64,000 nucleotides of DNA from Somniosus microcephalus (Eukaryota): contig CM126215.1 in assembly GCA_052327205.1 (NCBI GenBank), forward strand, positions 126,046,001 to 126,110,000, written 5' to 3'. Position numbers and translations under genes: made by a program. Shown here piece after piece: positions 4,331 to 6,556 of this stretch. The notes beneath the pieces are model-generated. The model ran no database searches and was not told where the DNA came from. It worked only from the letters and a program-made list of their open reading frames with translations. How positions within the stretch are numbered: the first letter of the stretch is position 1; the number at the start of each line of letters is the position of its first letter.

Positions 4331-6556
4331 TCATCTTCTGTTTTTACTTTTCCTTTTCTGCTTCTTGGAGACTCTCTGGGCTCCATTGTCAGCTGCCACA
4401 GCTGCCAGCTGCATGCGCAGTTCCTCCTTCTCTTCCTCCTGTTTCCGTCGTAGAGCCAGCTTCTCCCGATGTTCCGTAGACTTTTGGTGCTCCTCCATGA
4501 TTTCTGCACTTTGGGAGTCGAAGTTACAAGCTGGGCAGGACAGGACATCGTAATATTCGGTGTCGTCCTGAGCTAGACCAGTGAGAGGGTCGTCTATTTC
4601 CTCCATACCTAGCTGGACGTTAGCCAGCTCTTGTTCCAAATCCAGACATCTTTCCTGAAGAGACTTCTTCATGTGTACCTCTGCATCCAGCTTTTTCTGG
4701 GCTTTCAGCAAGTCGTTTACTAGTGACCTCATTTGTGATTTTAATACTTCAACTTCCTTTGGAGATTGATTGATCGGACTATGCAATCCCTCTACCGGAG
4801 CAGCTGTTTCAGCGGTCTGTTGTTCTACGTTGACGTGAGTCAGCGTACTTTTGGCATCCAAGGGCTGCTCTGTTGCAGTCATCTCAGTCTGTGTTGCCAC
4901 CTCAGCTCTTCCAATAACCTTTGAGAGCTCCGAACCCCTTTCGTTTGAATATTGAAGTTCATGTTCAAGTTTTTCCCATTTCAGAGTCCTGTCCTTCAGC
5001 ATATGCAGGAGTTGGCTGACCGTTAACTCCTCTGACATCAGACGTTTTGTGTGCTCCTGCTCCATTTTCTCCATCAGCTGCTTCTGTTGTCTTTCCAGAT
5101 TCTCCAACTCTATATCAAAGAACTCTTTCGTTGCATTCAACTCTTGCTCAAAACGGCGAAGCATTTGTTCTAATTGCTGTTGTAGTTTGAAATGGAGTTG
5201 AGTTCGAGCCCGGTGTCCCTCAGAAATGGGCACATCAGTAGACTTGCCAGACTCAGAATCCACAGTTAAACTATGTTGTTGTTGCTCAGTGGAATTCTGT
5301 GCTGAAACTTTGTCTTTTGCACCTGAGTTGGGCTTACCATCATCCGTTCCAGAGTCTGGGCCGACTATCTTCACCGAGTTCTCACTCGTTATTGTTTGTA
5401 GGAAATGCCAGTCCATATTCATTTTCCTAATCCACTCCCGTCCTAGTAGTGGAGGACCTCCTTCAGATATCACATATAAGTCCATTATTTGACTGTCTTC
5501 GCCCTTGTGGGCCACTGCAACCTCTATTTTCCCGATGGGGTACACTCTTTGCCCCGTGTATGTTTTCAATATAATCCCCGTATCCTGTAGGGGAATATGT
5601 TGGAATAACTTTCCGTAATCTTTCTTATTTATGACCGTCAATGCCGATCCAGTGTCCAATTCCAGTTTTACTTGGACTCCTTCTATCTGAAGAGTGACCC
5701 AAATTGTCTGGAGGTCTGCACCCTTACCAGCGTTGAGTACTCTTAAGCTAGCCAGTTCATTACAGCTTAAGCTAGCCAGTTCATTACTGCTAGCGTCTGA
5801 ATCGGACTCCTGTTCGGTCACCTTGTGTACCTTTGCGTATTTTCCTTGCGGTGACTTCTTGTTGCTGGTCTTCTTCCCTGACCTGCATACTCTAGCTATA
5901 TGTCCAAGCCTACCACAAGTTCTACATTCTTGGTTTTTAAACCAACACTGGTTCTGATCATGCGTTGTCTTTCCACAACGATAACATTTGCCAGAACTCA
6001 CACCCAATTTGTGTGCACTGAGCTCCGGTGACCGTAGCTGCATTACTGCCGTGCCTCTCGCTGCGGCTTCGTGTGCTGCTGCCATAGTGACCGCCTTCTC
6101 AAGCGTCAGCTCATTCTCCTCGAGCAGTCGCTTTTGTGTATCCTGTTTAAATAAACCACACACAAATTTGTCTCGTAGTGCATCTGTCAATCCCGTTCCA
6201 AACTGGCAATATTTCGCTAATTTACGCAATTCCAGCAAATATTCAGCATTGCTTTCATGCTGTAGCTGCCTTCTGTCGTAAAATTTAAATCGTTCCGCTA
6301 GCATCAGCGGCGTGGGGTTTAGATGATCTTTCAGGACAGTAACAATCTCATCGAACGTCTTATCCGCCGGTTCATCTGGTGATAACAGGTGTTTCAATTG
6401 CCCGTACGTCTTCGCACCCATTAAATTTAATAATGTTAGAGCTTTATCTTGGTCACGAATTTTATTGGCCTTACAATAATTTTTTACTCTTTCAACATAT
6501 ATGGCCCAATCTTCGAGGTCACTATCAAAGGTGCTAATATTCCCGTGTTTAGGCAT
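4331..6556 (-). CDS. gag-pro: 741-aa chimeric polyprotein: Gag (2 CCHC knuckles) + aspartic protease + host-derived coiled-coil/zinc-finger segments
   Basis: Uninterrupted ORF with ATG in ACAATG context; [14 protein letters not shown] and [14 protein letters not shown] knuckles (aa 191-224); LDTGSA and LLGREW protease motifs (aa 300-375); non-retroelement C-terminal half. Confidence 0.9.
4334..4567 (-). other. DNAJC21: Captured DNAJC21-like C2H2 (JAZ/matrin-type) zinc finger + basic tail (aa ~664-741)
   Basis: [10 protein letters not shown]12[13 protein letters not shown]...SKKQKRK resembles recalled DNAJC21 YDDLYCPAC-x12-HEKSKKHREMVAL...SKKQKKK. Confidence 0.7.
4622..5035 (-). other. OPTN: Captured optineurin-like coiled-coil segment (aa ~508-645)
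   Basis: EELTVSQLL...ATQTE...[37 protein letters not shown] is colinear with recalled [13 protein letters not shown]...ETQTE...[37 protein letters not shown]. Confidence 0.8.
5039..5221 (-). other. STK10: Captured STK10/SLK-like coiled-coil segment (aa ~446-506 of chimeric ORF)
   Basis: [42 protein letters not shown] closely resembles recalled STK10 (LOK) [45 protein letters not shown] is the alternative paralog. Recognised from memory, not searched. Confidence 0.8.

Follow-up and report, generated by a model that had tools for sequence, protein, structure and literature searches.

The optineurin (OPTN)-like stretch in the window, by which we mean the whole 64,000-nucleotide stretch of Somniosus microcephalus DNA analyzed here, is most plausibly one of three fragments of spliced host RNAs that were fused in frame behind the Gag-protease of a young, non-autonomous Gypsy-type element. 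Capture likely took place by template switching of the reverse transcriptase (RT), and the fragment has likely been kept as translatable filler and not for an optineurin function; we give this reading as a whole a probability of roughly 70%. It builds on direct observation of the anatomy of the element, the loss of host introns, microhomologies at the junctions, intermediates that survive in the genome, selection on Gag and protease, the purging of stop codons from the cargo and transcription in sense. The other two host cargoes, which were absent from the preliminary description of this DNA, derive from STK10 and DNAJC21.

All features of the element are located on the minus strand. The whole element comprises 3,622 bp (3758–7379) and was inserted into the pol region of an older, broken Gypsy element, of which an RT and RNase H fragment (7631–8464) and broken integrase fragments (1285–3228) are left. 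It is bordered by two LTRs of 256 bp that are identical in sequence (TGTTGTG...ACA; 5′ LTR, 7124–7379; 3′ LTR, 3758–4013) and by a 5-bp target-site duplication (TSD), GAAAC (upstream copy, 7380–7384; downstream copy, 3753–3757). The primer-binding site (PBS) TGGCGACGAG (7113–7122) is complementary to a tRNA 3′ end, presumably that of tRNA-Ser-GCU, and a polypurine tract (PPT) lies at 4014–4028. The sole ORF (4331–6556; 741 aa) encodes Gag with two CCHC knuckles (Gag, 5726–6556; knuckles, about 5879–5986), an aspartic protease with an intact LDTGS motif (5414–5698) and the host cargo. The Pfam matches of Gag and protease stay below the curated cut-off in this ORF, that of the protease exceeding it in sister elements, and a PDB sequence search with the Gag-protease returned one weak Gag match only. 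A domain search of the 3,622 bp found no RT, RNase H or integrase, all of which are present in canonical order in the related elements at loci L112 and L049. With its paired TG...CA LTRs, short TSD, PBS and PPT, the structural hallmarks of Ty3/Gypsy, the window element is a non-autonomous derivative of a Ty3/Gypsy LTR retrotransposon. Priming by a serine tRNA is a trait of the Mag clade. The terminal motifs of Mag A LTRs (TGTTRKR ... RMRWMYAYAACA; Table 3 of PMC3601003) agree with those of the element at 7/7 and 11/12 positions, as compared by eye.

Several further observations concern tRNA ends and the remainder of the window. The tRNA 3′-end pattern has 511 matches in the genome; at the four loci inspected (L199–L202) a longer copy of the tRNA end, found by pattern, terminates in CCA beside an LTR-like end, in two of them after leader-like sequence of the element family, and ARAGORN called no tRNA gene at these four loci. 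These copies suggest extended copying of the primer. Within the window, 12456–12757 contains a 33-bp tandem array inside a SINE-like repeat, 26054–26752 is presumably a LINE-like RT fragment, and long simple-repeat tracts at 30805–40354 give rise to spurious ORFs.

The preliminary description had attributed positions 4622–5035 to OPTN, had noted the lack of the LIR and UBAN domains and had suspected capture from mRNA, all of which is borne out by alignment. The flagged segment is part of a longer piece at 4596–5047 (minus strand; ORF residues 512–662) that matches residues 226–384 of the shark OPTN P0002 with 113 of 159 identities (71%, E 1e-60). The 13 database matches to the cargo comprise six shark or ray OPTN proteins and seven proteins with a PKK domain, the named ones being STK10; a PDB sequence search with the cargo gave two weak and uninformative matches. 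Outside the captured piece lie, in P0002 numbering, the NEMO/TBK1-binding domain PF11577 (residues 44–111), the CC2-LZ/UBAN region (449–545), the zinc finger (596–621) and residues about 184–189, which we take to be the LIR motif. The idea that the tail of the element might be the UBAN end of OPTN was discarded on the basis of the alignment with P0002. When aligned to the host OPTN gene (G000:C17, about 85.87–85.91 Mb), the piece takes in the last part of one exon, the next two in full and the first part of a fourth (85884683–794, 85885344–539, 85887554–672 and 85890140–195; DNA identity 91, 80, 87 and 89%, respectively). Because these four exons are joined with the three intervening introns missing at GT/AG borders, OPTN must have been captured from spliced RNA; the exons are colinear, with no back-splice order. 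Separately, the host assembly shows extra bases and two substitutions that are absent from the reads (L061:5360–5400, i.e., G000:C17:85885360–85885400, and exon end 85884793), and these odd bases in OPTN exons near a gap are probably assembly errors.

The STK10 piece (5040–5387) originates from three host exons (G000:C8, about 167.19 Mb), carries internal deletions and includes the start of the PKK domain; a further remnant (4280–4339), now 3′ UTR, extends across a host exon–exon junction. This cargo goes back to a back-spliced STK10 circle copied once around: In sister L040 it starts mid-exon at host position 167197008, runs through three more exons to the donor at 167191933, continues from the upstream acceptor near 167198433 and stops at 167196995, thereby completing one full turn. 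The back-splice junction, located at the exact donor and upstream acceptor in L040, is missing from the window copy. Two other loci bear on STK10 itself: L041 (G000:C3:354658271–354658939) is a recent copy of the STK10 3′ part that lacks introns and is 98–100% identical to five host exons, and an intron region of the donor gene (G000:C8:167310–167322 kb; L111–L113) houses both a cargo-bearing sister and a full-pol relative.

The third piece (4340–4590) encodes a C2H2 jaz finger and a basic tail from DNAJC21; its fusion to the STK10 remnant does not keep the frame and thereby creates the stop codon of the ORF. A homolog search with the window copy's own tail yielded nothing at E<=10, and the less diverged tail of a sister gave 24 matches, nearly all of them DNAJC21 by name or domain type, and shares 30 of 42 residues with DNAJC21 of the white shark; a full HMMER search of the tail listed seven proteins, two of them DNAJC21-like. 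For the host gene, two early exons were located (G000:C1:2653208–2667876); later exons are absent from the 180 kb downstream and the donor exon was not found in the 200 kb searched, in which there are two gaps. A PF21884 search matched another locus and offered no route to the donor. Among the homologs, the 278-aa catshark protein P0020 corresponds to the C-terminal half of DNAJC21 only; it may represent an isoform or a retrocopy, or one part of a gene split during annotation.

A DNA search of the genome for the window subfamily returned 431 candidates; all 40 that were scored matched at a rounded 100%, and the 150 tails that were scored all encode the same protein sequence. Twenty copies were fetched whole, which are the best matches and not a random sample: All are full length (3,593–3,622 bp) with an intact ORF, 19 are flanked by a 5-bp TSD, 15 have identical LTRs, and LTR divergence over the 20 is 10 of 5,118 sites (0.2%). 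The other copy samples likewise consist of best-scoring matches and are non-random. First-look candidates numbered 16,570 for PKK (150 scored) and 23,782 for OPTN (71 scored), which are loose counts and not copy numbers; in all, near-identical copies number in the hundreds and candidate relatives in the thousands. Twenty fetched PKK loci resolved into 18 Gag-protease-STK10 elements, one processed STK10 copy and one that was too short.

These relatives preserve the stages of cargo acquisition. Copies at L067–L096 carry OPTN 131–428, or a shorter portion of it, within the STK10 circle; in L096, OPTN is trimmed to residue 384; copies at L150–L178 have gained DNAJC21; and the window subfamily has lost 318 nt, the LIR included. 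A 21-nt deletion of the window copy is common to all eight long-OPTN ORFs whose junction region was compared, where readable, and therefore points to one OPTN capture. Moreover, an LIR-type motif is found in 24 of the 29 readable frames of long-OPTN copies, so that the ancestral cargo possessed the LIR and lost it late through the 318-nt microhomology deletion; the earlier suggestion that the piece, being devoid of the LIR, could act as a decoy finds no support. The window Gag-protease, finally, is 88.8% identical in DNA to the full-pol element L112 (subfamily A) vs about 78% to the cargo-bearing sisters, and the switch of backbone is located near the protease end (about 5410–5450). The series of events probably began with a full-pol element of subfamily B, whose pol would have been replaced by the STK10 circle before OPTN 131–428 was inserted; OPTN would then have been trimmed to residue 384 and DNAJC21 added, and the LIR deletion and the switch to a subfamily A Gag-protease may have come last, in either order. 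Cargo also varies elsewhere in the family: Sisters L027–L039 (e.g., L029:4880–5800) have two to three Ig I-set domains inside the STK10 cargo, with titin as best PDB match, L027, L029, L031 and L035 hold another insert placed after the protease, and the sister ORF at L038:2641–5562 contains an extra insert that, as we presume, resembles WHIM segments of BAZ1A/BAZ1B.

At the junctions, microhomology extends over 10 nt (pol/STK10), 9 nt (STK10/OPTN), 7 nt (OPTN/STK10), 8 nt (trimming) and, with a mismatch, about 5–9 nt (LIR deletion); these 5–10 nt at five junctions are raw lengths, uncorrected for chance matches. They point to template switching, in agreement with the prediction of the template-switch model (PMC5131818). 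The following mechanism appears probable to us: Gag-protease would be made from the element's own RNA, which the element would also package. Self-packaging is probable because Gag and protease are under selection. Full-pol relatives that share the PBS would supply RT and integrase. Host RNAs that enter the same particle could then be copied into the element by template switching, as the junctions suggest, and those captures would persist whose reading frame stays open until shortly before the 3′ LTR. The probable reason is RNA stability: A premature stop can trigger nonsense-mediated decay, and in the element it would give the RNA a long, destabilizing 3′ UTR.

Uncorrected pairwise dN/dS values, determined against sister and full-pol copies, are 0.12–0.18 for Gag, 0.12–0.41 for the protease, 0.36–0.70 for STK10 and 1.3–4.5 for DNAJC21; for the OPTN piece, compared with seven sister copies, they amount to 0.34–0.46 (p 0.001–0.035 against 1). 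Because uncorrected dN/dS understates neutrality, the singleton changes in 27 and 29 copies were used as a neutral baseline. Measured against it, Gag (19N:27S among shared changes vs 85:39 among singletons, p=0.0015) and protease (28:29 vs 37:12, p=0.009) are under purifying selection. The whole cargo does not depart from the baseline (95:40 vs 232:109, p=0.66), nor do the differences fixed between the window subfamily and the precursor group, be it over all cargo (54:21, p=0.58) or in the OPTN piece (20N:12S vs 71:29 among singletons, p=0.39). Amino-acid change in the OPTN piece is therefore indistinguishable from this baseline, which leaves the decoy against autophagic clearance proposed in the preliminary description unsupported. 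Stop codons in the cargo, however, are rarer among shared changes (0/95) than among singletons (15/232; p=0.007), also with the 3′ segment included (1/127 vs 17/292, p=0.017). Additionally, the large shared indels of the cargo are multiples of three (138, 129, 21, 9 and 3 nt), whereas three small shared ones, clustered at one junction, are not. What is kept in the cargo is hence the open frame and not particular residues, the counts being small; mild constraint on OPTN residues is possible, as significance is lost only against the singleton baseline and, again, with small counts.

The motif AEVATQTE (EVATQTE, 4883–4903) had been singled out as an LC8 site. It does fit the consensus as predicted, with the TQT anchor, E at +2, A at −2, V at −3 and E at −4 in accordance with the position rules in section 9 of PMC6607443, which also states that many TQT peptides do not bind LC8; the supposed role in dimerization or transport is unsupported, as the motif is host-inherited. 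Four of the six shark and ray OPTN orthologues compared (P0002–P0007) have TQT and two have RQT. The host assembly has TPT where TQT is expected, with extra bases nearby, and RNA reads carry the TQT base in 13/13 (run X23) and 24/24 cases (run X24), some of these reads being element-derived; we treat the TPT as an assembly error or a private allele. Judged from sequence, TQT is a host feature that was inherited with the OPTN piece, because it is found in those four orthologues and in host mRNA reads. Conservation among copies, to which the preliminary description had looked for a function, is no better than that of neighboring residues: The 29 older copies have TQT (24), TPT (3) or TQA (2), with a modal frequency at the TQT residues of 0.90–1.0 vs a segment mean of 0.97. 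Invariance of TQT in 40 young copies was rejected as evidence, since these are near-identical and were chosen as best matches. In host OPTN itself, the LC8-type TQT of those four species lies between two coiled coils; our literature search, judged by title or abstract, found no paper on binding of OPTN to LC8 (DYNLL1).

Expression was followed in two RNA runs chosen by species label, X23 and X24, with reads mapped at 97% identity. In X23, 7,803 reads mapped, and the OPTN bins reach a depth of 417–709 in sense vs 18–38 in antisense; in X24 both strands are covered (134–225 vs 103–144). A 21-nt stretch of an OPTN exon that occurs in the host gene only has a depth of 8 (X23) and 12.6 (X24). Element RNA exceeds host OPTN RNA about 50-fold in X23 (417–709 vs 8) and about 20-fold in X24 (279–335 vs 12.6), where element depth is the sum over copies and host assembly errors may lower the host figure. 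The window subfamily is expressed in the sense orientation, at a level far exceeding that of host OPTN mRNA. Ten runs (three organism labels, four studies) contain at least half of the element's words, and an atlas search gave leads at 0.85 or less only. Loose-ended RNA reads at window positions 4644, 4673, 5029 and 5076 represent transcribed derivatives of the subfamily with further inserts or junctions.

The filler reading has to be weighed against other explanations and against some points of its own: The DNAJC21 junction broke the frame, the uncorrected dN/dS of OPTN lies below 1 (0.34–0.46), and run X24 covers both strands. The same dN/dS, the kept OPTN frame, the amplification of the subfamily after loss of the LIR and the roughly 50-fold (X23) and 20-fold (X24) excess of element RNA over host OPTN could be taken to indicate a selected decoy, in which the translated OPTN piece is released by the protease and, by binding OPTN of the host or proteins that interact with it, weakens the removal of particles through autophagy or TBK1-linked pathways. 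We consider this quite unlikely, since the piece is devoid of both the N-terminal NEMO/TBK1 domain and UBAN, its residues show no constraint against the singleton baseline, LIR-bearing forms are abundant too, and successful sisters do without OPTN, with titin-like Ig domains or STK10 alone. A generic physical property, by which coiled coils and the TQT-LC8 site aid dimerization or traffic of Gag-protease in place of the lost RT, would explain why the STK10 PKK and OPTN pieces are both of coiled-coil type, and TQT obeys the LC8 position rules (PMC6607443); it is nevertheless quite improbable, as the TQT is host-derived, is not preferentially retained and is missing from many sisters, and as TQT peptides often fail to bind LC8 (PMC6607443).

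That the cargo is fully neutral baggage, its intact frames reflecting only the young age of the copies, would suit the 0.2% LTR divergence and the neutral amino acids of the cargo, but stops are depleted among shared changes, the large shared cargo indels are multiples of three (the three small ones are not), and the frame has outlived about 13% divergence and several rearrangements, which makes this explanation very unlikely. Domestication of the window copy as an OPTN retrogene of the host is extremely improbable: An intact ORF and transcription of the family would be expected of such a gene, and the preprint 10.1101/2024.09.09.611499 counts single-exon OPTN copies as gene duplications, but here OPTN stands in frame with Gag-protease, and the copy belongs to a set of hundreds of nearly identical insertions that are scattered over the genome and have TSDs of their own. 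Unlikely, too, is a broader scenario in which the LTR family would serve as a rolling exon-shuffling platform whose OPTN cargo, produced from thousands of copies and with RNA far more abundant than that of the host gene, acts back on the host, either as an LIR-less, LC8-dimerized fragment or via element-targeted small RNAs that would silence OPTN, STK10 and DNAJC21. We therefore retain captured RNA kept as translatable filler as the best explanation.

The mechanism itself is already known from LTR-mediated retroposition and maize Bs1; unusual are the scale and the staged record. Tan et al. (2016; PMC5131818) describe LTR-mediated retroposition in animals with microsimilarity at the switch points, and the features by which retrocopies are recognized there recur in the shark element: an intron-less host segment, microsimilarity (in raw lengths), sense co-transcription and secondary amplification. 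Partial spliced mRNAs within LTR elements, multi-gene chimeras in sense and in frame, and further cycles of retroposition are common to both. Unlike the cases in that account, the shark chimera retains a Gag-protease that is under selection and shares a single ORF with the cargo; its subfamilies reach hundreds of copies, the family has thousands of candidates, and every stage is left in the genome. Maize Bs1, as summarized in PMC5131818, is likewise an LTR element with three cellular gene pieces, two of them in frame, and secondary retroposition; with 1–5 copies it differs from the shark element, which resides in a vertebrate, is far more numerous and shows ongoing cargo turnover and a backbone swap. 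The mouse circRFWD2 pseudogenes reported by Dong et al. (2016; PMC4897178) share the back-splice exon order in the genome, the many copies and LTR-rich flanks, whereas in the shark the STK10 circle took the place of pol without breaking the frame and then received the subsequent captures, its back-splice junction being lost in the window copy. For the Greenland shark genome, the preprint 10.1101/2024.09.09.611499 reports intron-less, single-exon OPTN copies that have LINEs or LTRs no more than 1 kb away, attributes them to retrotransposition and includes them among lineage-specific duplications linked to longevity; its main text takes them as host duplications, describes no Gag-protease fusion and contains no mention of STK10 or DNAJC21. 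Our literature search, which covered this preprint by its main text, found no description of a shark Gag-protease family whose host cargo turns over in this way.

The family allows the steps by which an LTR element of a vertebrate captured host genes to be followed, and dated, within a single genome, from a circle through nested captures and trimming to a backbone swap, and it permits a direct test of why captured sequence keeps its frame. It also calls for caution: Thousands of open frames that contain OPTN, STK10, DNAJC21 or titin-like segments may be counted as host gene duplications in annotation, and in RNA-seq the counts of host OPTN are swamped by RNA of the element.
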